NCBI GenBank assembly: GCA_021827945.1
Contig: JAKATW010000138.1
Span: forward strand, 1-48,651
Source of the DNA: Thermoplasmata archaeon
GTDB lineage: Archaea; Thermoplasmatota; Thermoplasmata; Thermoplasmatales; GCA-001856825
Length of the DNA: 48,651 nucleotides
Direction of reading: 5' to 3'
Shown: positions 1 through 43,980 of the stretch, piece by piece
How positions within the stretch are numbered: the stretch's first letter is position 1
Layout: every line of letters begins with the position of its first letter
Position numbers and translations under genes: made by a program
Notes under the pieces: model-generated
Database searches by the model: none
Seen by the model: only the letters and a program-made list of their open reading frames with translations
Told to the model about the DNA's origin: nothing

Positions 1-411
1 TAGAATTAGTTCAATCATAAATTCTGGAAACATATTTAACGCCCAGAAGATAAAGAAATAAGGAAACAACATTAACAGCAATTGCCAAATTTTTCTCGAT
101 GGATATAATGCTAAGCCGACTAGTATAATCTCAGCGCTAAACAACAAAAGCTCTTTAAAAACAAGACCAACTAAGAGAAAATCGATAATTAAAATAGCAA
201 TAACAGGAGCTAAATATGATATAAGAAAACTTGTCTTGAACCCTTTTGGTCCTTCCCTAAGTAGGTCGCCTATTGTTGGATTAACTTTATCCTCGATTTT
301 TCTCTTCTTCCTTCTGGACGGCTTTTTAGTTAATAATAGAGGGATCAATAATGATAATATGCCGGCTGTTAAATTTACGAATTCTATTATTGTACCTAAT
401 TCTGGTGGCAA
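1..411 (-). CDS. Partial membrane protein; 3' end lies beyond the window start, TTG start assumed
   Basis: Own reverse-strand translation. It is absent from the track because there is no stop inside the window. The frame is open for 137 codons from TTG at 411 to base 1. A basic stretch KKPSRRKKRKIEDKV is followed by hydrophobic helices (FLISYLAPVIAILIIDFLLVGLVF, IILVGLALYP, LLLMLFPYFFIFWAL). I prefer it over the antisense 236..457 ORF. Confidence 0.35.
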   Translation of the reverse strand, partial: MPPELGTIIEFVNLTAGILSLLIPLLLTKKPSRRKKRKIEDKVNPTIGDLLREGPKGFKTSFLISYLAPVIAILIIDFLLVGLVFKELLLFSAEIILVGLALYPSRKIWQLLLMLFPYFFIFWALNMFPEFMIELIL

Positions 412-466
412 CAGTTCTATAACTTTCAGTGATATTTTAACTTATTATAAACGCTAGATGCTGTAA

Positions 467-790
467 TCATGTCCACCCTTCTACAAATTCTTTCATTTCC
501 TGTATAAACCTGTCCAGAAAAGATTTCCTTACCGGACAGTGAAATCTCAGGGAGAGGGTTTGTGAGCAAACTATCGGTGGTGGGAGATGGGTTTTTCGGG
601 CTTTGACTACAAGATACAACACGTCTACGATCTTTTGATTCATGAGATCTGAAGTACTTTCCTTATTGAACATTCAGACATGTGCTGCGCTTTGGTTGAC
701 AATATCAGACACTACTCTTGTTGCCAGTCCAAGGTGACCGGAAGGTCGAGAGAATGTGTAAATATCCGTAAGGATTGTTATTTATCCGAG
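467..790 (-). pseudogene. Decayed C-terminal remnant of a tyrosine recombinase, paralog of the gene at 4100-4675
   Basis: The 68-aa ORF ends ...SFLDRFIQEMKEFVEGWT, colinear with ...PFTDRDKQEMKEWIEGWI of the intact recombinase. VKARKTH aligns with KSMRKTY. In another frame up to ~790, GHLGLATRVVSDIVNQ resembles AHLHRVSMPKRVAFDQ. The catalytic GH and RHY positions are substituted and the frame is broken. Confidence 0.5.
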
Positions 791-803
791 GAAAGGAGTT
801 TAG

Positions 804-1064
804 ATGGTTAATTCAAGAGAAATGACTGATTCTGAGTTGATGGCAGAACTTGAGAGAAGGAAAGTCTTGGAACCGACACTAAACATAAGGGTGGGCTTTG
901 GTTCATCGCTCAAATTCTGGCTTGCTTACCTGATAGTTAGCATGATCTCTTTCTTGATAGTTGTACTTATCATTGTTCTAATAATCTACCTTTTATTCCC
1001 GGGCTTAGGAACCATTCTTACGCATTACGGGCTATCAATTTGGAGCATGCTCACATATGCTTAA
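804..1064 (+). CDS. Small membrane protein (86 aa), unknown function
   Basis: ORF track. A GGAG-type motif (aaaggagtttagATG) lies 5 nt upstream. The N-terminal segment is charged and is followed by two hydrophobic helices (FWLAYLIVSMISFLIVVLIIVLIIYLLF). Confidence 0.5.
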   Translation: MVNSREMTDSELMAELERRKVLEPTLNIRVGFGSSLKFWLAYLIVSMISFLIVVLIIVLIIYLLFPGLGTILTHYGLSIWSMLTYA

Positions 1065-1129
1065 TTCTTTTATTCCTAACAGCAGCCCCTCGAGAAGATA
1101 TTTAAATATCTTAGGGGATTCATATTATA

Positions 1130-9755: not shown

Positions 9756-9973
9756 GATTTCTTTATGAAATAAGATTGATTTGTCTGGTTAGATATTTCC
9801 GACTAGATGTTTAGTTTGAAAATCTAGGTTCAGACAATTCTTTGAAGCCCAAGTCATTTGTCTATATACCATCACACCCTAAAGCGAGGAAATAGGCAGC
9901 GTAAGGTGCGTCATTGATATTTCGTAGTCTCAGGGTCTCTTGGTAATTCCTGAGGTCTTCATCCCTGAGCTTA

Positions 9974-10102
9974 CTATTTCTTCTTCCTTTCCGGAGCTCT
10001 GGAACTCTTTACATGATCGACTGGTCGTTCAAGTTCACCCTTAACAATCTTCATTGCAAGCTTATATTGTTCTTCTGAAAATCCCTGCAGTATCATTCCC
10101 AT
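9974..10102 (-). CDS. Possible 42-aa small protein
   Basis: Own translation: MGMILQGFSEEQYKLAMKIVKGELERPVDHVKSSRAPERKKK. It is preceded on its strand by tttaaaaaggagggaaagtggacATG, which combines TATA-like and GGAGG motifs. I recognise no family. Confidence 0.2.
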   Translation of the reverse strand: MGMILQGFSEEQYKLAMKIVKGELERPVDHVKSSRAPERKKK

Positions 10103-10345
10103 GTCCACTTTCCCTCCTTTTTAAACCTCCGAGATTCAGCAACCCTACGATTCAGGACGTAGTCAGTAACTGCTATCCCTTTGCATCCAATTGGAAGATG
10201 CCTGTAAGATCTGTTTAGACAACTAAATCCTGACACTTCATCTCATCAGCGGTATAGGTATCGTCAATCAGGTATAGAACGTTATCGATTATCTAATCTA
10301 TAATCAAAAATGACCTGTTATTTAGTGCATAACTAATAATGGAGC

Positions 10346-10624
10346 ATGGCATTGATCAAGGCGCTGGAAACTCAGTCCGGCGCAATGAGGCTCCTTCTAT
10401 ACCTTACGAAGGGACCTTCTTATGTGACCCTTATCCTAAAGGAAACTGATATACCTAACATCCAGCTTCTCAGATCAGTCGATTTGCTTTTGGACCTTAA
10501 ACTAATTCAGAAAAAAGTTGATGGTTCTACTTACCCGAAGAGGAATATCATTACCCTCACTAACAAAGGTAAACAAATCGCACTAAGGGTCAAAGAGATC
10601 GAGGGTATCTTAAAAGAGCCTTGA
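10346..10624 (+). CDS. Small winged-helix transcriptional regulator
   Basis: 92 aa. The layout is helix-turn-helix followed by a wing (...YVTLILKETDIPNIQLLRSVDLLLDLKLIQKKVDGSTYPKRNIITLTNKG...). Confidence 0.6.
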   Translation: MALIKALETQSGAMRLLLYLTKGPSYVTLILKETDIPNIQLLRSVDLLLDLKLIQKKVDGSTYPKRNIITLTNKGKQIALRVKEIEGILKEP

Positions 10625-10626
10625 AC

Positions 10627-10854
10627 TCAGTCGTTACGGTAGTATTGGTCTACTAATTCTATCTCCATTTGTAGTTTTTTCGCTCGCTCGAATGCAATAC
10701 GCGATATTATCAGGGACATTTTGTCTCTAAAAATCTTGATTAGGTCCTCCCTTGACTTTGTTTCCTTTACGCTCTCCCAGAAAGTTGTCAGGTCGAGATC
10801 ATACTGATCGCGCCTTCCAGTCAGATATTCCTTGTCCAGATCCCCCTCCCTCAT
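10627..10854 (-). CDS. Hypothetical helical protein (75 aa)
   Basis: ORF track only. It is convergent with the wHTH gene with a 2-nt gap. I recognise no motif. Confidence 0.35.
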   Translation of the reverse strand: MREGDLDKEYLTGRRDQYDLDLTTFWESVKETKSREDLIKIFRDKMSLIISRIAFERAKKLQMEIELVDQYYRND

Positions 10855-11016
10855 GTTTCTCGATTAGTACCTTATTGTGCATACTTATACTTTATCTCTT
10901 ATTAGAAAAATGAAAAAAATGAATAATTGAATTTTTGCCATACAATGTTCTGCCATTATGATAGGATTTCATCTATTTTCGGCTGATATTTGCGAAATGA
11001 TTATAATTAGATCATA

Positions 11017-11407
11017 ATGATTTTGACTACGTTCTATTCTTCAATAGAATTACAATCAGATCTAGATGATGTGGCAGTATCATTTTTGTTGCACATTAAG
11101 GAGCAAGGTTATGCAATAATCGCAGACATAAATGTCAAAAATCCTTAGGAACTCGTTGATTTAAAACTTCAAAGGTTGTCATATAATAGATAAACGCAAG
11201 CCCTAGGCCGCAAAAGAAATTATAAATAATGAAAAATTGAATGATTTTTTGCCCTGCAGAATGAAAATAATTCGAGACGAAACGGCCACAAAGATGATGC
11301 TACTTAGTTCTTCACATGTCTCTGATTGTCTCTGCCCAAGATCGTCCGCAATCATAAGAAGATATGAGAGCGAATTGCCATCTATCCTTGATTTGTTTAC
11401 AATGTAG
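11017..11407 (+). pseudogene. Pseudogenised paralog of the DUF302 gene at 8686-9069
   Basis: Own translation: MILTTFYSSIELQSDLDDVAVSFLLHIKEQGYAIIADINVKN. A 1-nt deletion follows. The shifted frame then reads KILRNSLI*NFKGCHIIDKRKP*AAKEIINNEKLNDFLPCRMKIIRDETATKMMLL...SAIIRRYESELPSILDLFTM. This is colinear with the whole intact gene (ADINVKNILKNALNYDFKDYHILEICNPIAAREII...GLFVPCKLTVYQ...SAVIGKYERDLLSVLNSFSM). It carries one frameshift and two in-frame stops. Confidence 0.75.
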
Positions 11408-11454
11408 TCCGGGGAAAAGTAGAATTTATCAGAGTCTCCATTAGACCAGACAAT

Positions 11455-32456: not shown

Positions 32457-33458
32457 TTATTTTGTCACAAGATAGTGAAGGGACAGTGAACCTACTATCA
32501 GATTGAAGTAGAACGTGATAAAGCGCCAAATTATGACGAATGCCACAATTCCCCCATGGGGCAAAAAGACTGAGAAAGTAGCGATCATCAGCACTTCCAT
32601 GATTCCAGCCGACCCTGGAGTAACTGGGATCAGGGATATCAAAACCAGTATTATCTGGATGAATATAATGTCCAAAAGATTGGGCATGACCCCAAAACCG
32701 ATCAGTAGCGCGGTCGGTACCATGAAGTCTGAGATCCACAAGAGTGACGTGACCAAGACGCCAATGATCAGGGCACCGGGGTGGTGCAGGAATATCTTCT
32801 TAGTCGATGAGGCATAGATTTCTATGTGTTCAAAGACTTTTGGTAGAGATTCCTCGTATTTCTTGCCCTTCCTGTCAAATCTCCGTGCCACCCTTTCGAT
32901 CCAACTCTTCAATCTATTCATCAATGAACTCGCACCCATGGACACCAGAAGGAATGAAAGGAACAACACCAACAGTACCGTCCCAATCATCGCGAGAATC
33001 CTCAGATCACCAGATAATGTCTCCAAACCAGTCAGAATTGCGAATGCGAAGACGCCAACGAAGAATATTGAGTCGAACCCTCGTTCGCCAAGAGCAATGG
33101 CTGTGGCAGTACCTGCGGGTTCACCGTAGTCTATCAATTTCTTAATTCTGACAGGTTCGCCTCCCACATATCCGGGAGTGATGGAAGCAGCAAAGAGTGA
33201 AGTCATGACCGCTATGAACGATTTGAAGAACGATATCTTGTAGCCGTTTGTGCGGGAGAGTAGCTTAATTCTTAATCCCCAGAAGAGGAAAGAAACAACA
33301 TGCAGGGCGAGCGCAGCAAGAAAAAATATGTAGAAGTCCGAGGGGAGAGTGGAGAACGTACGTAAGAGGTTCTCTGGTCCGTAAACGAATATGAATATCA
33401 GCAGAGTGACCGCAGATACTGCAATCCCAAGGAACTTACTGCCTGATCTTAAGTTCAA
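32457..33458 (-). CDS. Flippase-like membrane protein (LPG-synthase-TM / UPF0104 family)
   Basis: 333 aa with about 8 TM helices. It has the segments ITPGYVGGEPVR and IPVTPGSAGIMEV, which are typical of this family. It overlaps the GT4 gene by 23 nt. Confidence 0.65.
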   Translation of the reverse strand: MNLRSGSKFLGIAVSAVTLLIFIFVYGPENLLRTFSTLPSDFYIFFLAALALHVVSFLFWGLRIKLLSRTNGYKISFFKSFIAVMTSLFAASITPGYVGGEPVRIKKLIDYGEPAGTATAIALGERGFDSIFFVGVFAFAILTGLETLSGDLRILAMIGTVLLVLFLSFLLVSMGASSLMNRLKSWIERVARRFDRKGKKYEESLPKVFEHIEIYASSTKKIFLHHPGALIIGVLVTSLLWISDFMVPTALLIGFGVMPNLLDIIFIQIILVLISLIPVTPGSAGIMEVLMIATFSVFLPHGGIVAFVIIWRFITFYFNLIVGSLSLHYLVTK

Positions 33459-34509
33459 TTAGTTCACCATAAATCGCCTCTAACAGATCTGCGGTAGTCT
33501 GAATTGAATAATTCATGCTGGATCTTCGCGCGTTCTCGGAATACGATCTCATATCCAACCCATCCAACTCCCGTATCTTGCTTACGAGCGATTCCGGATC
33601 ACCGTATTTTACAAACCAACCGTTATAGTCGTCCCTCAAGATTCCTATCTCTCTTGTCTCCGATGACCCCACTACCGGTGTGCCCGAAGCCATAGCTTCG
33701 ATGAAAACCACTCCAAAAGTTTCAGCCCTTGAAGGGGCAACAAGCAATTTTGCATTCTTCAATAGATCAATCTTATCCTGCTCCGACACATATCCAAGGT
33801 ACTCTATATTTCTGTACCTGTTGGCGTAGTCCTTCACGCTGTCCCTCAGTGGACCAGTGCCAGCAATCTTGAATTCCTTATTGGGAAGCCTAGCTGCTGC
33901 TTCAAGCAGTTCCAACACTCCTTTGTCCTGAGTAAGCCGTCCGATAAACAGGTAGTAATCTTCCTTGTTTTCATTATAGACAAATTTACTTAGATCGATG
34001 CCTACTGGCACTATCTTCGACTTATTTCCAAAGTCAGAGAGATGGTCCGCAACCAATTTGGAAGGTGAAATAACCATATCCAGTTTCGCATACAGATGCA
34101 TGTTGTACTGGAATCCAATGTTCAGGATGCTCTTGATGAAGGGAAATCTGACCGTGTTGTCCATGTTGACAAAATCGGTGTGGTAGGTACCGATGGTGGG
34201 AATGTTTCTTTTCCTTGCATATCTATAGCCCATTGTGCCCAGGGTGAAGGGGGTGTGAATGTGTATAACCTGTGGGTCAAACCGCTCGAGGTCCCTGTAC
34301 ATCTCATATACCGGGATTCCCACCCTGTATTCCTTGTAAAGGGGGAATCGATAAGAAGGTAGTCCGAAAACACCATCATTGGTAGAAAATACCGTATAGA
34401 CCCTAACGGAGTGCCCTCTCTTTTCCAGCTCGACCTTGTAATCTACTAGATGATTTGCTACACCGTCAGCTATCGGGTGGTACGTATCGCTGCATAGGGC
34501 TATTCGCAT
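33436..34509 (-). CDS. Family 4 glycosyltransferase (GT-B fold)
   Basis: The N-terminal segment is MRIALCSDTYHPIADGVANH. The C-terminal E-x7-E region is SRAETFGVVFIEAMASGTPVV. Confidence 0.85.
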   Translation of the reverse strand: MRIALCSDTYHPIADGVANHLVDYKVELEKRGHSVRVYTVFSTNDGVFGLPSYRFPLYKEYRVGIPVYEMYRDLERFDPQVIHIHTPFTLGTMGYRYARKRNIPTIGTYHTDFVNMDNTVRFPFIKSILNIGFQYNMHLYAKLDMVISPSKLVADHLSDFGNKSKIVPVGIDLSKFVYNENKEDYYLFIGRLTQDKGVLELLEAAARLPNKEFKIAGTGPLRDSVKDYANRYRNIEYLGYVSEQDKIDLLKNAKLLVAPSRAETFGVVFIEAMASGTPVVGSSETREIGILRDDYNGWFVKYGDPESLVSKIRELDGLDMRSYSENARRSSMNYSIQTTADLLEAIYGELIELKIRQ

Positions 34510-35416
34510 TGAGCGTCGTGTGACCGATATTTTTACGATTATAAAGATATATCTTACTCACCAGTGTGGCTTGTTCTATGAAATTCGTCTCCGAAGGTTC
34601 TCTGAAACACTGTATGAAACAGTCATTGCAGGTGTTGGTGTAGTCGTCCCACTTCCTATTTGAGTTCAGCTTCTTTGCCGTCTTGTAGAAGCACGGATAT
34701 ACGTCTCCGTGGTAGTCTGCATAGAAGACCTCTTCCCCCGCCCGGCATCTCTGAACATCCCTCTTTTCCAGCCAGTCTACTGCCTCCTTGTAGTAGGTCC
34801 TGGTATTCCCGAACTTGAATTCTTTGTATTTCTCAAATGCAAAGTTGAATGCTTCCTTTATCTGATCGTTCTCGACTGGCACTTTTTCGTAGTAATACGA
34901 GCTGTTGTCCGGGAAGCACATTGATACAGGAAGACCCAGTTCATTGTTCACAAAATTGGCGTATTCTCCAATCTTATCGTAATTGAAATCCGTGACAAGG
35001 ATGTTTGAAGTAAGAACCTTCACTTTTGGCTTAAGGTACCTCATGCTTTCGACTACAATATCGAATATCTTTCTTCCCCTGTATTCATTATGGAGTTCTG
35101 GAATGTGACTATCAAGGCTGATAGTAGCAGCGTCCAAATATGGGTAAATTTTGCTTAGGACAAACTTGTTTGTTCCATTCGTTGCGATATGGGTCATGAA
35201 CTTATGTTCCTTTAGCGTCTTGAGAATCCTCGGTAGGTCAGGATGAAGTGTTGGTTCTCCTCCGGTGACTGATACGATTTTGACCTTGTTGTACTTCATT
35301 TCGTCTATGAAATCTTCGATCTTATCCTTGGGAAAGAGAACATTGCCTTCGAAGGCGTTGCAGCCCTTACAAAGAAGATTGCATTTGAAATCGATGTTCC
35401 ATATGACTGTCTTCAT
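34466..35416 (-). CDS. Radical SAM enzyme with a C-terminal Cys-rich (SPASM/twitch-like) region
   Basis: The CNLLCKGC (C-x3-C-x2-C) motif lies at residues 12-19 and is followed by VTGGEPTLHPD. The C-terminal region reads CRAG...HGDVYPC...CNDCFIQC. It overlaps the GT4 start by 44 nt. Confidence 0.8.
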   Translation of the reverse strand: MKTVIWNIDFKCNLLCKGCNAFEGNVLFPKDKIEDFIDEMKYNKVKIVSVTGGEPTLHPDLPRILKTLKEHKFMTHIATNGTNKFVLSKIYPYLDAATISLDSHIPELHNEYRGRKIFDIVVESMRYLKPKVKVLTSNILVTDFNYDKIGEYANFVNNELGLPVSMCFPDNSSYYYEKVPVENDQIKEAFNFAFEKYKEFKFGNTRTYYKEAVDWLEKRDVQRCRAGEEVFYADYHGDVYPCFYKTAKKLNSNRKWDDYTNTCNDCFIQCFREPSETNFIEQATLVSKIYLYNRKNIGHTTLNANSPMQRYVPPDS

Positions 35417-35467: not shown

Positions 35468-36424
35468 CTAATTCTTCGTTCTCTTGAGAATGTACTCGGT
35501 GAAATAACTGATCACGATATCCGCCCCTGCCCTGAATATTGAACTCAGAGACTCGTCGACAACGGAATCGAGGTCTATGATACCTTTTTCTGCTGCAGAC
35601 TTGATCAATGAATACTCTGCGCTGACGTTGTATGCAGCAATCGGTAGAAGGAACCTGTTCCTGGCTTCCTTTATGATGTCGAGATAAAAGAGTGCGGGTT
35701 TCACCATTACGACGTCCGCTCCCTCCTCCACGTCTAATTCAATCTCACGGATCGCCTCCCTTGTGTTTGAGTATGGCATCTGATATGTTCTCCTGTCGCC
35801 GAAAGATGGCGTGGAAAACACCGCCTCCCTGAAAGGGGCGTACATGGAACTCGAGAACTTTGCGCTGTATGCCAGAATGAGTGTTTCCTCAAAACCTGTC
35901 GAATCGAGTTCCTTCCTGATCCTCCCAACCTGGCCGTCCATCATTCCGGAGGGCGCGACCCCGTCCACTCCAGCTTCTGCGTAGCTCTTTGCAATCTTCG
36001 CGTAAGTTTCAAGGGTAGAGTCGTTGTCCACGTTCCTCCCGTTTAATATACCGCAGTGACCGTGATCCGTATATTCACAGAGGCAAAGATCAGTGAAAAC
36101 GGCAAGATCTGTCTCTCTCTTGATCTCCCTTACTGCCCTCTGGACTATCCCGTTCTTTTCGTAAGAGGTAGATCCGGTTGCGTCCTTGTGGTTCGGAACG
36201 CCAAACAGCAGAACAGACTTGACTCCGATGTCCTCGTATTCCTTCACCTTGTCCACGAGGCCTCCCAGCGGAAGCCTGAATACGTCGGGCATGTTCTTTA
36301 TTTCTTCCGGTCTTGAAATGTTCTCGTCGACGAAAAGGGGCATTATTAGTTTGTTTGCCCTTATCTCAGTGTCTGAAAAAACCTCTCTGATCCTAGGCGA
36401 TTTTCTTAACCTTCTTAGCCTCAT
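35468..36424 (-). CDS. hemB: Porphobilinogen synthase (ALA dehydratase)
   Basis: The N-terminal segment is RLRRLRKSPRIREVF...LIMPLFV. The metal site is CLCEYTDHGHCG. The active-site region is VMVKPA. Confidence 0.92.
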   Translation of the reverse strand: MRLRRLRKSPRIREVFSDTEIRANKLIMPLFVDENISRPEEIKNMPDVFRLPLGGLVDKVKEYEDIGVKSVLLFGVPNHKDATGSTSYEKNGIVQRAVREIKRETDLAVFTDLCLCEYTDHGHCGILNGRNVDNDSTLETYAKIAKSYAEAGVDGVAPSGMMDGQVGRIRKELDSTGFEETLILAYSAKFSSSMYAPFREAVFSTPSFGDRRTYQMPYSNTREAIREIELDVEEGADVVMVKPALFYLDIIKEARNRFLLPIAAYNVSAEYSLIKSAAEKGIIDLDSVVDESLSSIFRAGADIVISYFTEYILKRTKN

Positions 36425-37616
36425 ATCTGGAAAAGTTTTCGTTCAATATCATCTCCATATTCGTTACTGTTTCCGATGATCTGATGTCCTTCGCATTCTT
36501 TATACCATTGATTACAAATCCGAGCAGTTTGTTCCTTGTCGATTCCAGTCCCTTTCTTATCTGTGCAGAATTCCCACCGTCAACGGTCTTCTTATCGAAA
36601 TACTTCATCTCCTCCTCAATGACCTCGTTCGAATAATCGAATATCTTCTTCAGGAATTCCTCTCTCTCCACATTCATCAACTTGCGAGAGAATTTCTCGA
36701 ATTCGTTGTTCACTGTTTTTAGGCTCTTGGTTGCATAATCGTTCTTGACGTCATCCTTCCTAGTTATCTTCCTGGATAGTGTTTCCATGTTCACTAGGCT
36801 GACACCCTTGGGGACTTCACTGCGTACGTTTGCAGGAACTCCCAGGTCCAGGATCGTCTTGATCTTTGAGTTCAGCAGGTCTCCTTTCCCAAGGAGAGGT
36901 TCTGAAGCTTTTGTGGCCGTTATGACCACATCGTAGGATTTCCACTTGGTCTTTTCGAACTTCTCGACCTCTGCACCGAAGGCCTTCGATATCTCCTTCG
37001 CCCTCTCGAGTGACCTGTTGCTTACTGAGAAATGAATTCCTCTTCTCGAAAGGAAACTGGCTATCTGTGTGCCCAGGTCCCCCGCACCTATAACGAGAAC
37101 CGTCTGACCCGGAATGATATTTATCTGGTCTAGCGCTTCCCCGGCAACGCTCTTTGCCCGCTGTCCGTTGCCGTTTTCTCTTCTCGCCTTCCTTCCCACC
37201 TCAAGAGACTTTTTCAGTACTTCGTTGAGATTTGTTCCGGAAAGCCCCCTCCTCCTTGAAACATTCCAGGCCTCCCTGACCTGCGCAAGAATCTCACTCT
37301 CACCTATCACCATGGAGTCTAGTCCGGCCGTGACCAGGAACAGGTGTTTTATTGCATCCAGTCCGTGAACCACGCTATGCTTCATCGACCTGTCCCTGAT
37401 GAAATCCTCCAGGAACTCCACCGTCTCTCTGTCCCCAGGATAGAAATAAATCTCAAACCTGTTACACGTCCACAAAACAAGGGCCTCTTCTATTCTTTCG
37501 TTCTTCCTGATATAATCGTAAACTTCCTCTAGCTGAAAGTCCTTGATTGTCGAAAAATAAAGAGAGCCCAGGTCTCCGTAGGTCACCCTTATAAGGAATA
37601 TACCCCCTTTCTCCAA
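36393..37616 (-). CDS. hemA: Glutamyl-tRNA reductase
   Basis: The catalytic motif is TCNRFEIY and the NADPH-binding motif is VLVIGAGDLG. The product is 407 aa. Confidence 0.9.
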   Translation of the reverse strand: MEKGGIFLIRVTYGDLGSLYFSTIKDFQLEEVYDYIRKNERIEEALVLWTCNRFEIYFYPGDRETVEFLEDFIRDRSMKHSVVHGLDAIKHLFLVTAGLDSMVIGESEILAQVREAWNVSRRRGLSGTNLNEVLKKSLEVGRKARRENGNGQRAKSVAGEALDQINIIPGQTVLVIGAGDLGTQIASFLSRRGIHFSVSNRSLERAKEISKAFGAEVEKFEKTKWKSYDVVITATKASEPLLGKGDLLNSKIKTILDLGVPANVRSEVPKGVSLVNMETLSRKITRKDDVKNDYATKSLKTVNNEFEKFSRKLMNVEREEFLKKIFDYSNEVIEEEMKYFDKKTVDGGNSAQIRKGLESTRNKLLGFVINGIKNAKDIRSSETVTNMEMILNENFSRYEAKKVKKIA

Positions 37617-37652
37617 TTTATCGCACCTAAATCTGAAACGCAGACAACATAT

Positions 37653-38303
37653 TTACCTTTTTGTGGCTAGTTTAGAGAGTATATCCTTTATGTCCGGAAT
37701 TTCAAATGTTTCCGTTGGAATGTAACCCATTCTTTTCATGGTCTCTTCCGTTGGTTTCCCTATAGCGTATAGCTCCTTGGAATTTATTAAGCTCTCTGCA
37801 TTTTTGATCAGAATTTCGAAAGACCTGGAAGAGCCTACCAGAATCTCCTTCACGTCTCTCAGAGGCCCATAGTTCACACTTTCGTTTTCTTCGATTCTGT
37901 AAGCAATTGTCTGTTTCACCCTGACCCCAGATTCCTGAAGTTTGACAAGCAATTTCTTCGAAACCTGATCGCTACCTATGATATTCACCGACCCTTCGGA
38001 ACCGACAATGAGGTCTGCAAGACCGCTAGAATCTTGAATTTCTGGGACTTCACAATCTTTAGAATAGAGCTTCTCCAGATAGTCTGAAGTCTGTCTTCCG
38101 ATGCAGTATATTCTACTGCTCTTTATTGAAACGTTAGACATCTTCAGGGAGGTGATCCCTCTCTTTGAAGTGAACACTATAGGTCCGTCGACGCTCTTGA
38201 TATCAGATAGATCTCGGTACACAATCCTCAACACCGGGATTTGTATCACTCCTTCCGGTTCTTTGTCAAGGGGTGCGCCCACATAGGCAACCTTACGATC
38301 CAA
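37653..38303 (-). CDS. hemD: Uroporphyrinogen-III synthase
   Basis: 216 aa with a two-lobe HEM4-like pattern (IVFTSKRGI..., AIGKPTEETM). Its position between hemC and hemA supports the call. Sequence conservation is weak. Confidence 0.7.
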   Translation of the reverse strand: MDRKVAYVGAPLDKEPEGVIQIPVLRIVYRDLSDIKSVDGPIVFTSKRGITSLKMSNVSIKSSRIYCIGRQTSDYLEKLYSKDCEVPEIQDSSGLADLIVGSEGSVNIIGSDQVSKKLLVKLQESGVRVKQTIAYRIEENESVNYGPLRDVKEILVGSSRSFEILIKNAESLINSKELYAIGKPTEETMKRMGYIPTETFEIPDIKDILSKLATKR

Positions 38304-39138
38304 TTATATCCCTCAGTCTCTTCACATCTGGTTCTTCTATCTTCCCTTTGAATGAAAAGTCGAACCGCCTCTCCTCATTGGCATAGGCGAACTTCACCAC
38401 CTTACTAGAGTAAACCGCCCTGATACTGGCTGCAAGATTGCATCCAAGCTGTAATCGGACCATCAAGTCTCTTTCTCTCGATGCTTCCCATAACGATTCC
38501 TGGTCCTGAATCTTCTTTAACTTCCTTTCGATCTCGCTACCCCGAAGGGTGACGACTGCAATGAACCCCTGATTAGGGTCGGGAGGACATATCTCCTCAG
38601 CTAGTGCTTCCCCCGGAGGGATAAGGTTCAAACGATCCAGCGCTGCTTTCGCGACGACTATTGCCCCGATATCCCCTCTCTCCCACTTTCTGACCCTCGT
38701 ATCAATATTTCCCCTTATGTTCTCAAATTTCAGACCCCTGTTGTGTAAACTCAGGAATACCTTCCTCCTGATTGAGCTCGAACCCACGGACCCGGAGAAG
38801 CTGGATATATTCACATGTGAGACGAAATAATCCCGGGGGTCTGCCCTCTTCGAAAAATAGCTTATGACAAGTTCTTGATCGATTTCGTTTGGGATGTCTT
38901 TGGCGGAATGAACTGCCGCTTCAACTTCCCCGCTGAGAATCTTATCGTTCAGTCTCTTGACAAATACTCCCTGCTCTTTCATCTTGTATAGCGGAGTCTC
39001 AGTATCGTGTTCTCCGTGGGATTCTATTACCACGGCAGTGCTCTTGATTTTCTGAAATTCCAGATCTCCTGAAATTATTTCATACTGCTTCAGGGCAAGC
39101 CTGGATCCCCTCGTAGCTATTCTCAGTGTGCCTTCCAT
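38293..39138 (-). CDS. hemC: Porphobilinogen deaminase (hydroxymethylbilane synthase)
   Basis: The N-terminal segment is LRIATRGSRLAL.Q. It also has VHSAKD and RGNIDTR. Confidence 0.9.
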   Translation of the reverse strand: MEGTLRIATRGSRLALKQYEIISGDLEFQKIKSTAVVIESHGEHDTETPLYKMKEQGVFVKRLNDKILSGEVEAAVHSAKDIPNEIDQELVISYFSKRADPRDYFVSHVNISSFSGSVGSSSIRRKVFLSLHNRGLKFENIRGNIDTRVRKWERGDIGAIVVAKAALDRLNLIPPGEALAEEICPPDPNQGFIAVVTLRGSEIERKLKKIQDQESLWEASRERDLMVRLQLGCNLAASIRAVYSSKVVKFAYANEERRFDFSFKGKIEEPDVKRLRDIIGS

Positions 39139-40310
39139 ATCCTTTTCGCTTCCTCTGAGAGGAATTGGAATGACTCCTTCACTTCAGACTCTTCATGTGC
39201 AAAGCTGATGAATATTGTTTCATCAAAAGATGGCGCGAGAAATATCCCCTTCTCAATCGCCCTTTCAAATAATCGGAAATACAGATCCTTCCTGGTCTTG
39301 AGGGCATCAGAGGCACTCTGAACTCTTTCATCTGTGAAGAATAACGAAAGCATTCCCACCTGTGAATTCACTGTCAAACCGGAACCGGACAGGCTTTCCA
39401 CAGCAATATCTGTGAGTTTTTTTAGACTGGAATAATCTTTTTTAGAAAGTATCTCCAGAGTCTTCAATCCTGCAGCTACGGAAAGGGGGTTTCCTGAAAA
39501 TGTGCCTGCCTGGGGGAATGGCCCTTCCGGCCTTACATCCCTCATAATTCTCTCACTCCCTCCGTACGCAGCCAGTGTGAGACCGCCTCCGATTATCTTT
39601 GCAAATGTGGCCAGATCTGGCACCACCTTCTCTCTGACATAAAAGGGATGAAACCCGGTTCTGAAACCCGTGATTACCTCATCCAAGATCAACAGTGTCC
39701 CGGTATTTTCGGTAATTTCTCTCACTTCCTCCAGATAACCTTCGACTGGATTTATGACTCCAGTGTTTCCCATCACAGGTTCCATGATAAGGCAAGCGAA
39801 TTCCTTGCTCGATAGTTTTTCCTTCACAGAATCTGGGGAATTGAACTCAACTGATTCAACGTAGTCTGAGTCGAAGTTGAATGGATGCGTTCCGTGATAC
39901 CCACCCTTGATCTTGAGCACTTTCTTTCTATTAGTGTGGTGTTTTGCAAGCCTTATGGCGTGCATAGTTGCCTCTGTACCCGTATTGACTATCCTGATAG
40001 TGTTCAGGGATGCGGATTTGGTCAACAGTTCTCCGAACTTCACTTCTAGTTCGGTGGGCGCCCCAAACAGCGTGCCATCCCGAGCAACTTCATTGATTCT
40101 ATCCACTACTTCCTTTTGTGAGTGACCTAATATGAGTGGCCCATACGCGAGTAGGAAGTCGACGTATTCTTTGTCGTCGACATCCCATATCCTAGAGCCC
40201 TTCCCCTTCTTAATGAACCGGGGGTACGGAGGGTAGTACCTGACAGGGCTGTTTACACCCTTTGGAAACAGTCTCGATGATCTCTCAAATAGTCTTTCAC
40301 TGTTGTTCAG
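39123..40310 (-). CDS. hemL: Glutamate-1-semialdehyde 2,1-aminomutase; extended upstream of the track ORF, with a non-canonical (CTG) start proposed
   Basis: The track ORF starts at the GTG at 40106. The same frame is open upstream and encodes the conserved HemL N-terminus: LNNSERLFERSSRLFPKGVNSPVRYYPPYPRFIKKGKGSRIWDVDDKEYVDFLLAYGPLILGHSQKEVV. No in-frame ATG, GTG or TTG is present there. The CTG at 40310-40308 overlaps the upstream TGA, giving CTGA. Confidence 0.8.
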   Translation of the reverse strand: MNNSERLFERSSRLFPKGVNSPVRYYPPYPRFIKKGKGSRIWDVDDKEYVDFLLAYGPLILGHSQKEVVDRINEVARDGTLFGAPTELEVKFGELLTKSASLNTIRIVNTGTEATMHAIRLAKHHTNRKKVLKIKGGYHGTHPFNFDSDYVESVEFNSPDSVKEKLSSKEFACLIMEPVMGNTGVINPVEGYLEEVREITENTGTLLILDEVITGFRTGFHPFYVREKVVPDLATFAKIIGGGLTLAAYGGSERIMRDVRPEGPFPQAGTFSGNPLSVAAGLKTLEILSKKDYSSLKKLTDIAVESLSGSGLTVNSQVGMLSLFFTDERVQSASDALKTRKDLYFRLFERAIEKGIFLAPSFDETIFISFAHEESEVKESFQFLSEEAKRIWKAH

Positions 40311-40813
40311 AAAAATACTCCTGCCAGTATCTCCGCGACCAGCACTACTACCACCATCATTCCCACCGTTATGAATGACAGTAGGTGTGATATTTTCCTC
40401 AACCGTTTGAGCTCATCAAACTTGCCTTCCTCTGCAAGTTTCGGAAATTTCTTGCCATGCCACAGATTGTTTCCATACAGAATCCCGTACATCAGTGCCA
40501 CGGCAACTATCTTGACAGTCAGAACCTGCCCCCATTGAGTAGCGATCGTTCCAGAGAAGTCAGTGAAATACGACGGGCGGTAGAGGTAGACAAGGAGTAA
40601 ACCTGTTACCGTGAGAAGAATAATAGATACGTTAGTCCATAACGCGTATCTCTTGCCCATCAACGACATGAATCTGGTTCTCTGTTTTTCATCTGGCATT
40701 GCAATGCTACTGGCAGGCCACACAATGACCCAAACAAATATAGATGAGCCAACTAGAAAAACTGCACAGATTACGTGAATGAATAGGACCGTAATCATCA
40801 ATAGGTCATACAT
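40307..40813 (-). CDS. 4-TM membrane protein with a conserved His in TM1; CopD/HemJ-like, candidate porphyrinogen oxidase
   Basis: 168 aa. TM1 reads LFIHVICAVFLVGSSIF, the H-x7-x-G pattern shared by CopD-like and HemJ proteins. A later segment, WGQVLTVKIVAVALMYGILYG...GKKFPKLAEEGK, resembles the W-x3-K-L...Y-H...KKLA region of cyanobacterial HemJ as I recall it. It sits between the radical SAM gene and hemL. Confidence 0.45.
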   Translation of the reverse strand: MYDLLMITVLFIHVICAVFLVGSSIFVWVIVWPASSIAMPDEKQRTRFMSLMGKRYALWTNVSIILLTVTGLLLVYLYRPSYFTDFSGTIATQWGQVLTVKIVAVALMYGILYGNNLWHGKKFPKLAEEGKFDELKRLRKISHLLSFITVGMMVVVVLVAEILAGVFF

Positions 40814-40825
40814 AGTAAAGGCAGA

Positions 40826-41956
40826 TTACGTTACGCTATTCAAAGCTTTCATGGAGTCGGGAATGTAGACGCACCTTGGATCCTCCTGGAACATGTCTCC
40901 AAAATAGCTGTATGCCCTGGACCTTGACCCACCACATATGTCCGAATATTCACACATACCACATCTCCCCTTGAAGTTCCGGGAATCCCTCAACCTGACG
41001 AGGACCTCATTGTTCCTGTAGATTTCCACTATACTTCTTTCTTTGACATTTCCCAGTTTAATTGGAAGAAATCCGGATGGATTGACATCTCCATTGTGAG
41101 CTACGAATATTATGCCCTTACCATCTCGTGTCTGGCTAGTGTGTCCCTTGGGCCGGTCACCAGGTTTTCCAAGAAGATTTATTGTTTCTTTTACAAGTCT
41201 CCCGTAGAGTTCTCCTCCCCGGTATTCGCTCTTCTCTCTCTCGATCAGGATTCTCCTAAAGAATGGGGCTTCCACTGTCCTGATCGATATTCCGTATCTT
41301 GATGCAAACTCAAGATAATTGAAGACATCTTCATATGATTCGGAATCCAGATCCTCCCTGTCGATTCCCCTTCCAGTTTTGATCAACGAAAAGACTTCCC
41401 AGGTCTTGACTCTGGTTTCTAGAAGTATCTTCAGAAGTTGAGGGAGTTCGTTTACATTCCTCCTGAATACTGTGGTGTTTATCTGGAGGGTAAATCCCTC
41501 GGCGATGATCTTCCTTGCCAGATCTAGCGTCTTGTCAAAAGTTCCAATGTACCCTCTCAGCCAATCGTGTGAATCAGATGACGCTCCGTCAAGGCTCAGC
41601 GACATAGACTTCACCCCGTGCCTTTTCATCATTGCAAACGCTTCGCTATTCAGCAGCGGTGTGGCACTGGGGGACATCGAGGCAGGAATTCCGAGTTCCT
41701 TCGCTTTCTCTAGAATTGTTTCGACCCCCCTTTTCTTCATAATGTCTCCTCCTGTCAGTATCAGCACCGGGTAGGGTGGTCCGAACTCTTTGATCTGCTC
41801 GACAAAGGACAGGGAATGCTCCAGGTCCATCTCATCAGGCAGTGCCTCAAGTAGTGCGGATGCCCTACAGTGCTTGCAGGCAAGATCACAGGCTTTAGTC
41901 GTCTCCCAGAATATAAGTATTGGCTTGGAATTGTAGTCGATTGGACGGGGGTTCAC
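40826..41956 (-). CDS. Radical SAM/SPASM enzyme of the NirJ/AhbC/AhbD type
   Basis: The motif WETTKACDLACKHCRA (C-x3-C-x2-C) is followed by LILTGGDIM. The C-terminal SPASM-like region is GRCGMCEYSDICGGSRSRAY...DPRCVY. It is the first gene of the hemLCDAB operon. Confidence 0.7.
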   Translation of the reverse strand: MNPRPIDYNSKPILIFWETTKACDLACKHCRASALLEALPDEMDLEHSLSFVEQIKEFGPPYPVLILTGGDIMKKRGVETILEKAKELGIPASMSPSATPLLNSEAFAMMKRHGVKSMSLSLDGASSDSHDWLRGYIGTFDKTLDLARKIIAEGFTLQINTTVFRRNVNELPQLLKILLETRVKTWEVFSLIKTGRGIDREDLDSESYEDVFNYLEFASRYGISIRTVEAPFFRRILIEREKSEYRGGELYGRLVKETINLLGKPGDRPKGHTSQTRDGKGIIFVAHNGDVNPSGFLPIKLGNVKERSIVEIYRNNEVLVRLRDSRNFKGRCGMCEYSDICGGSRSRAYSYFGDMFQEDPRCVYIPDSMKALNSVT

Positions 41957-42173
41957 TGCGAGTGGATTAATGAATTCTATTTAAGTAAAACGTAACTCCG
42001 TCATTAAACAGATCACGTGAGCTGTAACCTTGCCTTCATTCTTTGGATCGGAGACAGCTGAAATCCTTGAGTATAGATTCTCTGCGACCCTTCCCATCTC
42101 CTTTGCGATCACAATCTCCACATCCCTGAGGCCAGATTTCAAAATGATTTATACTCCTACTGATTGAAGAGAC
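41957..42173. promoter_or_regulatory. Divergent control region between the two heme transcription units
   Basis: 217-nt spacer between the radical SAM start (41956, minus strand) and the hemE start (42174, plus strand). AT-rich boxes (atttaagtaaaa, tttcaaaatgatttata) lie near each end. Confidence 0.35.
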
Positions 42174-43145
42174 GTGAATGGAAACAAGAAAGTACTCCAG
42201 ATAGCGAAGGGGGAGCTTCAGGACAATGCAGTTTGGTTCATGAGACAGGCAGGAAGGTATCTCCCTGAATATGAATCAATGAAGGCAGGCAGACCTTTTA
42301 TCCAGTTCTTGAGAGATCCCCAAACGATATTCGACGTTTCAACCCTCCCATTGAAATACCTGGATGTGGACGCGATAGTAGTATTCACTGACATTCTGTT
42401 GCCACTTACCAAGATCGGGTACGACTTGTCTTACGAGAGCGGAATATCCGTCCAGGAGTCAAGCAAGGAGGATTTCGATCTCTACTCTCCGCTCAAGGTG
42501 GGTCTGAAGAGGATAGCTGAACTCCATTCCGATAAGACGATCATCGGGGTGGTTGGGGGACCATTCACCACCCTGTCATATATCCATGATGGAGGGAAGG
42601 GAGGATATCGCAGGACCAAGGAGATACTTGCGTCTGGCGATAGTGAAATACTGTCAACGCTGACAGAACGGATAGTCGAGTTTGCATCTGTCCAAGTCGA
42701 TTCCGGTGCCGATGTCATACAGATCTTCGATAGCTGGTTGGGTGGAGTCTCGGAGAGTTATTACGACAACCATCTTGGCAAGAACGAGGCATATTTTGTG
42801 AACAGGATTAAGGAACTGGGAAAACCAGTGATCTTCTTCAGTGACCATATAATCTGAGAAAGGATTAAGCTGCTGGACTTAAAAGCGGATGTATACTCCA
42901 TCGACTGGAGAATGGACCTGGACAGATTCAGAAACATATGTTCAGACTGTGTAGTCCAGGGGAATCTGGACCCGTATCTGTTGGGTGCCGATGACAGATA
43001 CATAAGCAAAGAAACAATCCGAATTATGCAGCAGGGCAAGAGATTCAGAGGACACATTTTTAATCTTGGGCACGGAGTCCCACCCTGGACTGATTGGAGA
43101 AAGCTTGATGTCATTGCCAGGGAGGTGCATAGCTATCCAAGATAA
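42174..43145 (+). pseudogene. hemE: Uroporphyrinogen decarboxylase interrupted by a single in-frame TGA at 42855-42857 (pseudogene, readthrough or sequencing error)
   Basis: The two track ORFs (42174..42857 and 42912..43145) are in the same frame. Read through, the product is ...PVIFFSDHII*ERIKLLDLKADVYSIDWRMDLDRFRNICSDCVVQGNLDP...HIFNLGHGV. The N-terminal WFMRQAGRYLPEY motif and the C-terminal QGNLDP and FNLGHG motifs are classical HemE signatures. Confidence 0.8.
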
Positions 43146-43980
43146 GGCTGTTGTACTGATGTACTATGGCTTCCCGGATAGAAGGGAAGAGATGCATGAT
43201 TATCTTAAGGATATCCTCCACGGTAAAGACCCGCCAGAAGGACTCATCCGGGAAAATCTGCAGAAACTGGACATAGTAGGCGGTTCAACGCCATCAACGA
43301 AGATAGTGAAGAGTATAAAGGAAAAGGTGAGCAAGAGACTGGAAGACGAAGGTTATTCCGTATATCTCCTCTCCAAACACTACACCCCTTCCCTCAACGA
43401 TGCTGCAAAAATAGTTCAAGGAGATGAAGTGTATGAAGTCCCCCTATTTCCGGTCTATTCAAAATTCATATTTGATGGTTATTTTGGACCTCTAGAAGAA
43501 CAACTGAAGGGCAAGAAATTGATCCGAGTATCAGATATAGGATTCAACAGGGGGATGATAGACTTTTATAAGGGAAAAATTAAGAGTGACAGAAATTCCC
43601 TTCTCACTTTTTCTGCTCACAGCATACCACTGGTGGGACCTGACTCCTATTCCGAGTCCGTACTGAGGTTGTCGAGAGAGATAGCCGATACAAGGCAATT
43701 CATCAACATATACCATAGCCAGGGACCTTTTCGTCCCAAGTGGCTGACACCCTACCCGGAGTATTCTGTTTCCTTTGCCAAAGAGAACGGTTTCAAGAGA
43801 ATACAGATAGTACCAATCGGCTTCATCTATGAACACCTAGAAGTACTCTACGATCTTGATTACAGGCTGAAGAATGAAGCAGCAAAAGAAGGAATAGGAT
43901 TTGATAGGGTCCCGCTCCCAAATGATGGTAACGTGGTAATCGATGCGATCGTCGATTCCATATACAGATCAAAATCCTGA
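43108..43980 (+). CDS. hemH: Ferrochelatase (protoporphyrin or coproporphyrin type not distinguishable by eye)
   Basis: It has KAVVLMYYGFPD near the N-terminus, FSAHSIP (catalytic His region) and the C-terminal YEHLEVLYDLD. The start is uncertain (TTG 43066, TTG 43105 or ATG 43108). It overlaps the hemE end. Confidence 0.85.
   Translation: MSLPGRCIAIQDKAVVLMYYGFPDRREEMHDYLKDILHGKDPPEGLIRENLQKLDIVGGSTPSTKIVKSIKEKVSKRLEDEGYSVYLLSKHYTPSLNDAAKIVQGDEVYEVPLFPVYSKFIFDGYFGPLEEQLKGKKLIRVSDIGFNRGMIDFYKGKIKSDRNSLLTFSAHSIPLVGPDSYSESVLRLSREIADTRQFINIYHSQGPFRPKWLTPYPEYSVSFAKENGFKRIQIVPIGFIYEHLEVLYDLDYRLKNEAAKEGIGFDRVPLPNDGNVVIDAIVDSIYRSKS

Follow-up and report, generated by a model that had tools for sequence, protein, structure and literature searches.

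Most heme-making archaea use the siroheme-dependent Ahb route, in which the radical S-adenosylmethionine (SAM) enzyme AhbD converts Fe-coproporphyrin to heme. Among archaea, Storbeck et al. (2010; PMC3004389) listed hemE and hemH for none but Thermoplasma and Picrophilus, detected no hemF/N, hemG/Y or ahb-nir genes there and called the route of these organisms unclear. The coproporphyrin-dependent (CPD) pathway of Firmicutes and Actinobacteria proceeds via UroD/HemE, CgoX/HemY, CpfC/HemH and ChdC/HemQ, and all CPD enzymes are soluble (PMC13564367). AhbD homologues in CPD organisms without other Ahb enzymes have been described already (PMC13564367, PMC5095920). Small membrane proteins enter the picture with HemJ (PgdH2), a homodimeric b-type heme protein (PMC13564367), and CgoN (YtpQ) of Priestia megaterium can replace CgoX without oxygen, with quinones as recipients of the electrons (PMC10965808). 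Here, we analyzed a stretch of 48,651 nucleotides from a Thermoplasmata archaeon (contig JAKATW010000138.1, in the following the window), which carries a heme locus of nine genes, including one for a radical SAM enzyme of the TIGR04053 family and one for a small CopD-like membrane protein with three conserved histidines. We propose, with a probability of roughly 55%, that this locus represents a complete CPD-type heme b pathway, in which the CopD-like protein replaces CgoX and the radical SAM enzyme acts as coproheme decarboxylase. The features of the locus are as follows (aa, amino acids).

40826-41956, minus strand: TIGR04053-family radical SAM/SPASM(Twitch) gene, assigned by its TIGR04053 and AhbD scores and its Cys pattern
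40307-40813, minus strand: CopD-like gene, 168 aa, four-helix membrane protein, assigned by Pfam CopD and an AlphaFold2 model
39123-40310, minus strand: hemL (glutamate-1-semialdehyde aminomutase), assigned by family scan, with a CTG start
38293-39138, minus strand: hemC (hydroxymethylbilane synthase), TIGR00212 198.6 bits (cut-off 164)
37653-38303, minus strand: hemD (uroporphyrinogen-III synthase), Pfam HEM4 68.5 bits
36393-37616, minus strand: hemA (glutamyl-tRNA reductase), GlutR_N, Shikimate_DH and GlutR_dimer domains
35468-36424, minus strand: hemB (porphobilinogen synthase), Pfam ALAD 447.8 bits
42174-43146, plus strand: hemE (uroporphyrinogen decarboxylase), matching Pfam URO-D and TIGR01464, with a TGA codon in the window copy
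43108-43980, plus strand: hemH (ferrochelatase), Pfam Ferrochelatase 117.5 bits
41957-42173, no strand: putative divergent promoter region of 217 nt, read from the sequence

Close homologues of these genes are found in uncultured Thermoplasmata of the acid-mine-drainage "I-plasma" group. The CopD-like gene begins 12 nt past the radical SAM gene, the ends of the genes from hemL through hemC, hemD and hemA to hemB mostly overlap, and the probable ATG of hemH at position 43108 lies inside the 3' end of hemE. HemA falls slightly short of the cut-off of the TIGR01035 model (208 bits, cut-off 209.55 bits). This map, with the radical SAM gene, a His-containing membrane protein gene and hemL-C-D-A-B divergent from hemE-hemH, had been drawn by a first-pass annotation of the stretch and was confirmed in its coordinates by the listing of open reading frames (ORFs) and by family scans. 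The same annotation had seen no gene resembling uroporphyrinogen methyltransferase (SUMT), ahbA/B, hemN/F, hemY/G or chdC in the window. This was upheld as well: a Pfam scan of the 27 further window ORFs of at least 110 aa detected no SUMT, ahbA/B/C, hemN/F, hemY/G or chlorite-dismutase-family gene, and tblastn searches of the window with HemY and ChdC queries gave no match.

Building on observed gene identities, family placements, conserved residues and conserved neighbourhoods, the proposed route would run as follows. HemA, HemL, HemB, HemC and HemD would provide uroporphyrinogen III, which HemE would decarboxylate to coproporphyrinogen III. The CopD-like protein would then strip six electrons from this intermediate to yield coproporphyrin III, in place of the flavoenzyme CgoX/HemY, and by analogy to HemJ these electrons would probably be passed to the membrane quinone pool, possibly via a histidine-ligated heme b. 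After iron insertion by HemH, giving coproheme, the radical SAM enzyme could employ a 5'-deoxyadenosyl radical, together with a single auxiliary 4Fe-4S cluster, to convert two propionates oxidatively to vinyls, so that heme b would be formed without oxygen. Like the CPD pathway of Firmicutes and Actinobacteria, this route features HemE, with a HemH that resembles CpfC in sequence, and ChdC is present in two related clusters (L078 and L081, see below) and in many Thermoplasmatales. The locus differs from that pathway in that a small membrane protein is found instead of CgoX/HemY and that the decarboxylase would be a radical SAM enzyme rather than ChdC.

The main support for this proposal comes from comparative genomics. 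A survey of one genome per GTDB species returned 80 loci, and the queries applied to their flanks were the proteins of the window together with HemY and ChdC. The whole arrangement is kept in 23 species-level Thermoplasmata metagenome-assembled genomes (MAGs) of the I-plasma clade, namely hemE, hemH and an M1 peptidase gene in one direction and the radical SAM gene, the CopD-like gene, hemL, hemC, hemD, hemA and hemB in the other, with genes that are 50-90% identical across the 23 species. The radical SAM and CopD-like genes are adjacent in 21 of these loci; the remaining two (L022 and L023) feature a 3.3-kb insertion between them, which consists of an unrelated gene of 1033 aa on the other strand that we take to encode a protease. 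Besides hemALBCD, hemE and hemH, the window and these 23 loci hold just the two genes in question as candidates for the pathway; with the queries named above and the Pfam scan of the window, no hemY, hemG, hemN, hemF or chdC was found within 10 kb, and CgoX/HemY was absent from the window and from the flanks of all 80 related loci.

A second set of loci is provided by six MAGs labelled Nitrososphaerota, Thaumarchaeota or "archaeon", in which the radical SAM gene directly adjoins a CopD-like gene and the Nitrososphaerota-type radical SAM protein reaches 439 bits on TIGR04053. Two of them (L078 and L081) have the series hemH-hemE-hemL-chdC-hemB-hemD-hemC-hemA in convergent orientation to the pair; the chdC-like gene matches the HemQ models best, along its whole length and below their cut-offs. 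No HemY was detected in these two clusters with the tblastn query. In both, the CopD-like gene is the sole gene without an assigned role, and coproporphyrinogen oxidation is the sole unfilled step. Two unrelated archaeal lineages have hemALBCD, hemE, hemH, a TIGR04053 radical SAM gene and the gene of the three-histidine protein in common, in independently arranged clusters. An arrangement kept in 23 species-level genomes, the core of which recurs in another order in another archaeal lineage, is far beyond chance.

The radical SAM protein is a member of TIGR04053 (481.6 bits, curated cut-off 395). The next-best model is AhbD (TIGR04545), which is matched over its full length with 253.7 bits, about half of its cut-off of 500, followed by NirJ2, NirJ, NirJ1 and AhbC. 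Among the best 25 of the 51 NCBIfam families matching the protein, most are AhbD, NirJ and AhbC models and SPASM maturases, and none is a HemN or HemW model. On TIGR04053, the homologues of T. acidophilum, Picrophilus, L081 and Actinomycetota reach 431-523 bits, and AhbD ranks second for every one tested. Seven cysteines are invariant in ten diverse members, C23, C27 and C30 forming a CX3CX2C motif and C332, C335, C341 and C362 a CX2CX5CX20C motif. All AhbDs possess CX3CX2C and a C-terminal auxiliary-cluster motif CX2CX5CX20-38C, and the four AuxI cysteines, which the family described here does not have either, are missing in AhbDs of non-methanogenic archaea (PMC10452713). A sequence search against the PDB returned BlsE and PqqE alone, at about 1e-10. 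Judged by its scores, the enzyme is not AhbD proper, but belongs to the sister family TIGR04053, with AhbD as its nearest characterized relative. The first-pass description as an AhbD/NirJ-type radical SAM enzyme was right about the neighbourhood in family space, but not about the family itself. Further differences to AhbD of the Ahb pathway are that the window lacks ahbA/B/C and SUMT and that bacterial TIGR04053 genes are coupled to hemY.

This coupling was observed in three Actinomycetota contigs (L003, L004 and L005), where the TIGR04053 gene shares 4 bp with the 3' end of hemY; the three hemY genes reach 231-256 bits on TIGR00562. The overlaps tie TIGR04053 to heme synthesis in bacteria too, and specifically to the CPD-type oxidase. 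Mycobacteria presumably have hemQ at the position where these contigs carry the TIGR04053 gene after hemY, which suggests that the radical SAM enzyme is an oxygen-independent ChdC replacement in these bacteria.

Regarding the ferrochelatase, the best PDB matches of HemH are 2c8j, 9vi5, the 6sv3/8at8 sequence group and 1ak1, all over the full length and with E-values of 1e-22 to 1e-19, whereas human ferrochelatase is matched only partially (about 4e-9). By sequence, HemH thus appears far nearer to the coproporphyrin ferrochelatases (CpfC) of Firmicutes than to protoporphyrin ferrochelatases. Moreover, the residue aligned with Tyr13 of Bacillus subtilis is a Tyr, a position that we assume to be contrasted by Met76 in the human enzyme.

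ChdC is specific to the CPD pathway, and both ChdC and AhbD-like enzymes use coproheme. Candidates for the coproheme decarboxylase are the AhbD-like radical SAM enzyme in the window and ChdC in L078 and L081, the latter enzyme being widespread in Thermoplasmatales. A Thermoplasmata ChdC was recovered from locus L051 by tblastn with an approximate Listeria sequence as probe, and 122 homologues of it were found, including those of T. acidophilum, Ferroplasma, Acidiplasma and A-plasma. The T. acidophilum protein of PDB entry 3DTZ is treated as ChdC in reviews (PMC10427985, PMC7611857). A comparison of accessions and assemblies with those of the clade's radical SAM proteins traced no ChdC to an I-plasma-clade assembly, many entries being without an accession, so that this clade may have a ChdC as well and the first-pass label "self-contained" goes further than the window allows. 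Since ChdC and the AhbD-like enzymes act on coproheme and HemH is nearer to CpfC, with a Tyr at the Tyr13 position, the pathway is most likely coproporphyrin-dependent. The CopD-like protein is proposed as the coproporphyrinogen dehydrogenase because one step is without an enzyme, one gene is without a role, and this gene takes the place beside the radical SAM gene which hemY holds in Actinomycetota. The central idea of the first-pass annotation, a hybrid route from HemE via a membrane oxidase and a HemH acting on coproporphyrin to an AhbD-like decarboxylase, was strengthened by comparative genomics, although the radical SAM enzyme is not AhbD and the membrane protein does not belong to the HemJ family. 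Its suggestion that the two leading genes of the operon supply the missing terminal steps also gained weight from the L078/L081 clusters and the hemY coupling in Actinomycetota.

The CopD-like protein matches the Pfam family CopD (PF05425) with 43.6 bits (gathering threshold 32.1) and DUF2269 below threshold. No match to the HemJ model PF03653 (UPF0093) was obtained, even at E ≤ 10, and the NCBIfam CopD equivalog NF033808 is met with 26.6 bits (cut-off 195), only at positions 150-286 of its 295. The AlphaFold2 model shows four long helices (mean predicted local distance difference test score, pLDDT, 91.3). A fold search of the PDB with this model retrieved no similar solved structure (best E 3.9), so that the structure offers no functional lead. 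The family is narrow, as a profile search covering 1.84 billion representative proteins yielded only 13 clusters at E < 1e-10. Of 102 distant relatives of about 160 aa, 101 match CopD, 70 DUF4149, 28 UPF0093/HemJ (weakly, best 1.6e-6), 27 DUF2269 and 8 Urate_ox_N, and these cross-matches imply that the protein shares the superfamily of HemJ, but not its family; the Pfam clan placement of the CopD-like and HemJ families is our assumption. In the earlier label "HemJ/CopD-like", the CopD part and the superfamily link thus held, while membership in the HemJ family did not.

Three histidines stand out in this family. His13 in helix 1, which may correspond to His16 of HemJ, is invariant in all 102 relatives aligned. 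Close family members and orthologues at 35-46% identity invariably keep His119, in the motif NN[LI][WY]HG[KR], and His143, in the motif R[KR]x[ST]H, and all three residues are common to Thermoplasmatales and Nitrososphaerota-type orthologues (35-39% identity). According to the positive-inside rule, the two Lys/Arg-rich loops would be cytoplasmic; His13 would then lie in the outer leaflet, whereas His119 and His143 would be close to the cytoplasmic side of the membrane. In the public annotation of the source MAG, the protein is given as 130 aa (L088, 5258-5650), and helix 1 with His13 is cut off; other gene callers and the family alignment back the call of 168 aa. A distant relative without His119 and His143 is located among hemerythrin, multicopper-oxidase and NnrS genes, a copper/NO-related setting with no heme genes, and thus contrasts with the three-histidine family. 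Two copies of the CopD-like gene were observed in the Thermoplasmata MAG KM4364-18, on separate contigs (L042 and L050), with 39-40% identity to the window protein.

Like HemJ/PgdH2, the CopD-like protein is a small multi-helix membrane protein of the CopD-like superfamily; it carries an invariant histidine in helix 1 and lies in a heme-synthesis context. It differs by the missing PF03653 match, by the two extra invariant histidines near the predicted cytoplasmic face and by its proposed substrate, which would be coproporphyrinogen instead of the protoporphyrinogen of HemJ. The reaction proposed is the same as for CgoN, likewise an oxygen-independent CgoX alternative feeding quinones, but CgoN has been described as a purified monomeric protein with flavin adenine dinucleotide, in contrast to a four-helix membrane protein. 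We advance, tentatively and at slightly less than even odds, the further idea that the three-histidine protein of the CopD superfamily is a new class of membrane-bound, probably heme-b-dependent and oxygen-independent coproporphyrinogen III oxidase, distantly related to HemJ, which together with the TIGR04053 radical SAM enzyme would constitute a fully oxygen-independent archaeal CPD route. Binding of heme b by the histidines and coupling to quinones would follow the example of HemJ.

Several points weigh against a CPD route with these two enzymes. Both enzyme activities are predicted from the genes and their conserved neighbourhoods, and an unrelated coproporphyrinogen oxidase such as HemY or CgoN may be encoded elsewhere in the genome. 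The CopD-like protein misses the HemJ model, and its predicted structure resembles none that has been solved. In 51 other Thermoplasmatales loci (among them those of Cuniculiplasma, Acidiplasma, Ferroplasma, Oxyplasma and Thermoplasmataceae), an orthologue of the CopD-like protein with all three histidines is not located beside heme genes, its neighbours presumably being the genes of the ribosomal proteins S7 and S12, so that the clustering with heme genes is lineage-specific. In T. acidophilum and Picrophilus, the radical SAM gene also stands alone, away from heme genes. One Nitrososphaerota-type locus, L085, has its CopD-like gene adjacent to the radical SAM gene, but the encoded protein lacks His119 and His143. 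Finally, the Arg and Tyr that we take to bind propionates in the CpfC of Firmicutes are not conserved in the HemH of the window.

The last point would also suit a protoporphyrin route, in which the radical SAM enzyme would process coproporphyrinogen III in the manner of HemN (CgdH), the CopD-like protein would oxidize protoporphyrinogen IX as HemJ does, and HemH would use protoporphyrin IX for iron insertion. HemJ belongs to the same superfamily as the CopD-like protein, and decarboxylation of a porphyrinogen by a radical SAM enzyme is possible in principle. However, HemN and HemW are missing from the best 25 families of the radical SAM protein, in which AhbD comes second, and this also makes the first-pass alternative of a radical SAM enzyme replacing HemN less likely. 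Furthermore, the sister cluster of L078 and L081 contains ChdC, a user of coproheme, HemH is much nearer to CpfC than to the protoporphyrin ferrochelatase PpfC, and the hemY coupling of bacterial TIGR04053 occurs in Actinomycetota, for which the CPD pathway has been described (PMC8529089). Consequently, we consider a protoporphyrin route unlikely.

About equally improbable is that the CopD-like protein assists the radical SAM enzyme as its redox partner in the membrane, passing the electrons set free by oxidative decarboxylation to the quinone pool, and that coproporphyrinogen is oxidized otherwise or spontaneously. In both archaeal lineages, no pairing is more conserved than that of the radical SAM and CopD-like genes, even in L085 where two histidines are absent, and for AhbD an external electron acceptor has been proposed (PMC10452713). 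With a mere partner, on the other hand, two clusters that look complete would have no enzyme for the oxidation step; moreover, the examined Actinomycetota TIGR04053 loci have no adjacent CopD-like gene, and the two genes lie apart in 51 Thermoplasmatales genomes.

A role of the CopD-like protein in metal or cofactor traffic, delivering copper to heme-copper oxidases, iron to ferrochelatase or heme to membrane cytochromes, appears more doubtful still. CopD is the top Pfam match, above the gathering threshold as in copper-resistance CopD proteins (PF05425/NF033808), and distant relatives adjoin multicopper oxidase and NnrS genes. Yet the score on the NCBIfam equivalog is far below its cut-off (26.6 versus 195 bits), the protein with only four helices corresponds to about half of the 295-position model, and the Pfam scan of the other ORFs revealed no cop genes in the window. 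The translational coupling of the CopD-like gene within a heme operon (see below) likewise argues against such a function.

For the preferred reading of a CPD-type route, no precedent of the oxidase was found: in the literature searched, no coproporphyrinogen oxidase has been proposed for Thermoplasmatales-type archaea, and no link of CopD-like proteins to heme synthesis is made. The oxidase candidate therefore appears to be new, whereas AhbD-like enzymes in the CPD pathway are already known from bioinformatics, so that the radical SAM half of the finding is not new in principle. For the heme gap of Thermoplasmatales, our analysis offers one candidate protein of 168 aa, the three histidines of which can be tested, together with a radical SAM enzyme as its partner. 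If true, a third, membrane-bound type of coproporphyrinogen oxidase would exist beside CgoX and CgoN, porphyrinogen oxidation would have been taken up by the HemJ/CopD superfamily on more than one occasion, and the making of heme in Thermoplasmatales and in a Nitrososphaerota-type lineage would be explained.

Two irregularities of the window concern its hemE and hemL genes. The hemE gene contains an in-frame TGA at 42855-42857, a position at which most relatives have His. This codon sits in a block of 22 nt (42845-42866), 21 positions of which differ from seven public assemblies of the same organism that encode an identical radical SAM protein (the NCBI MAG contig JAMDCC010000017.1 as well as ENA and Logan assemblies). 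Outside the block, the seven assemblies match the window except for one single-nucleotide polymorphism in one of them, and all seven read EGATHLYE at the block, resulting in an intact HemE of 323 aa. From this comparison, the block looks like an assembly artefact or an edited or altered copy in the window, not like a natural mutation or pseudogenization. By coordinate arithmetic, about the first 1.1 kb of the window (1-1090) would fall outside the matching public contig (268,264 bp), so that the window seems to stem from another or a longer assembly. The hemL gene has no ATG, GTG or TTG start and begins at a CTG (40310) overlapping the stop codon of the CopD-like gene (CTGA). The majority of the 17 relatives examined share this YTGA overlap, a few having ATG or GTG there; TTG serves as start if the CopD-like gene ends with the Phe codon TTT, and CTG if it ends with TTC. 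The conserved overlap points to tight translational coupling of the CopD-like protein and hemL. That the locus is decaying, with a hemE pseudogene and a hemL without canonical start codon that would forbid any inference of a working pathway, is very improbable, since the TGA block is confined to the window with seven other assemblies intact, the start of hemL conservedly overlaps the preceding stop codon in the clade and all genes are 50-90% identical across 23 species.

The region between the two divergent transcription units probably acts as a promoter. TATA-like boxes are located at 41978-41985 for the radical SAM operon and at 42148-42153 for hemE-hemH, about 22-26 nt from the respective start codons, and the motifs CTTAAATAGA and TATAAAT were found again in the intergenic regions of most relatives. 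An 18-nt palindrome in the same region, ACAGATCACGTGAGCTGT (42008-42025), was considered as a regulator site and rejected, as it is not conserved in relatives.

Downstream of hemB, at a distance of 51 nt, a second radical SAM gene is located (34466-35416, minus strand). Next in this series come a GT4 glycosyltransferase gene (33436-34509), with which it overlaps, and a gene for an LPG_synthase_TM membrane protein (32457-33458), all on the minus strand. This second radical SAM gene is the best-conserved gene of the locus, with 75-92% identity in 20 related loci, and is not present in the Nitrososphaerota-type heme clusters. Its product matches the PTO1314-family, HpnH and mycofactocin radical SAM models and DUF3463 weakly and probably has a role in lipid or glycan metabolism, not in the formation of heme. 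Further away, a region of 1.7 kb (9756-11454) contains only short ORFs of at most 92 aa and, like the window as a whole, gave no tRNA or Rfam match; its ORF of 92 aa (10346-10624) encodes what we take, by eye, to resemble a small winged-helix regulator.

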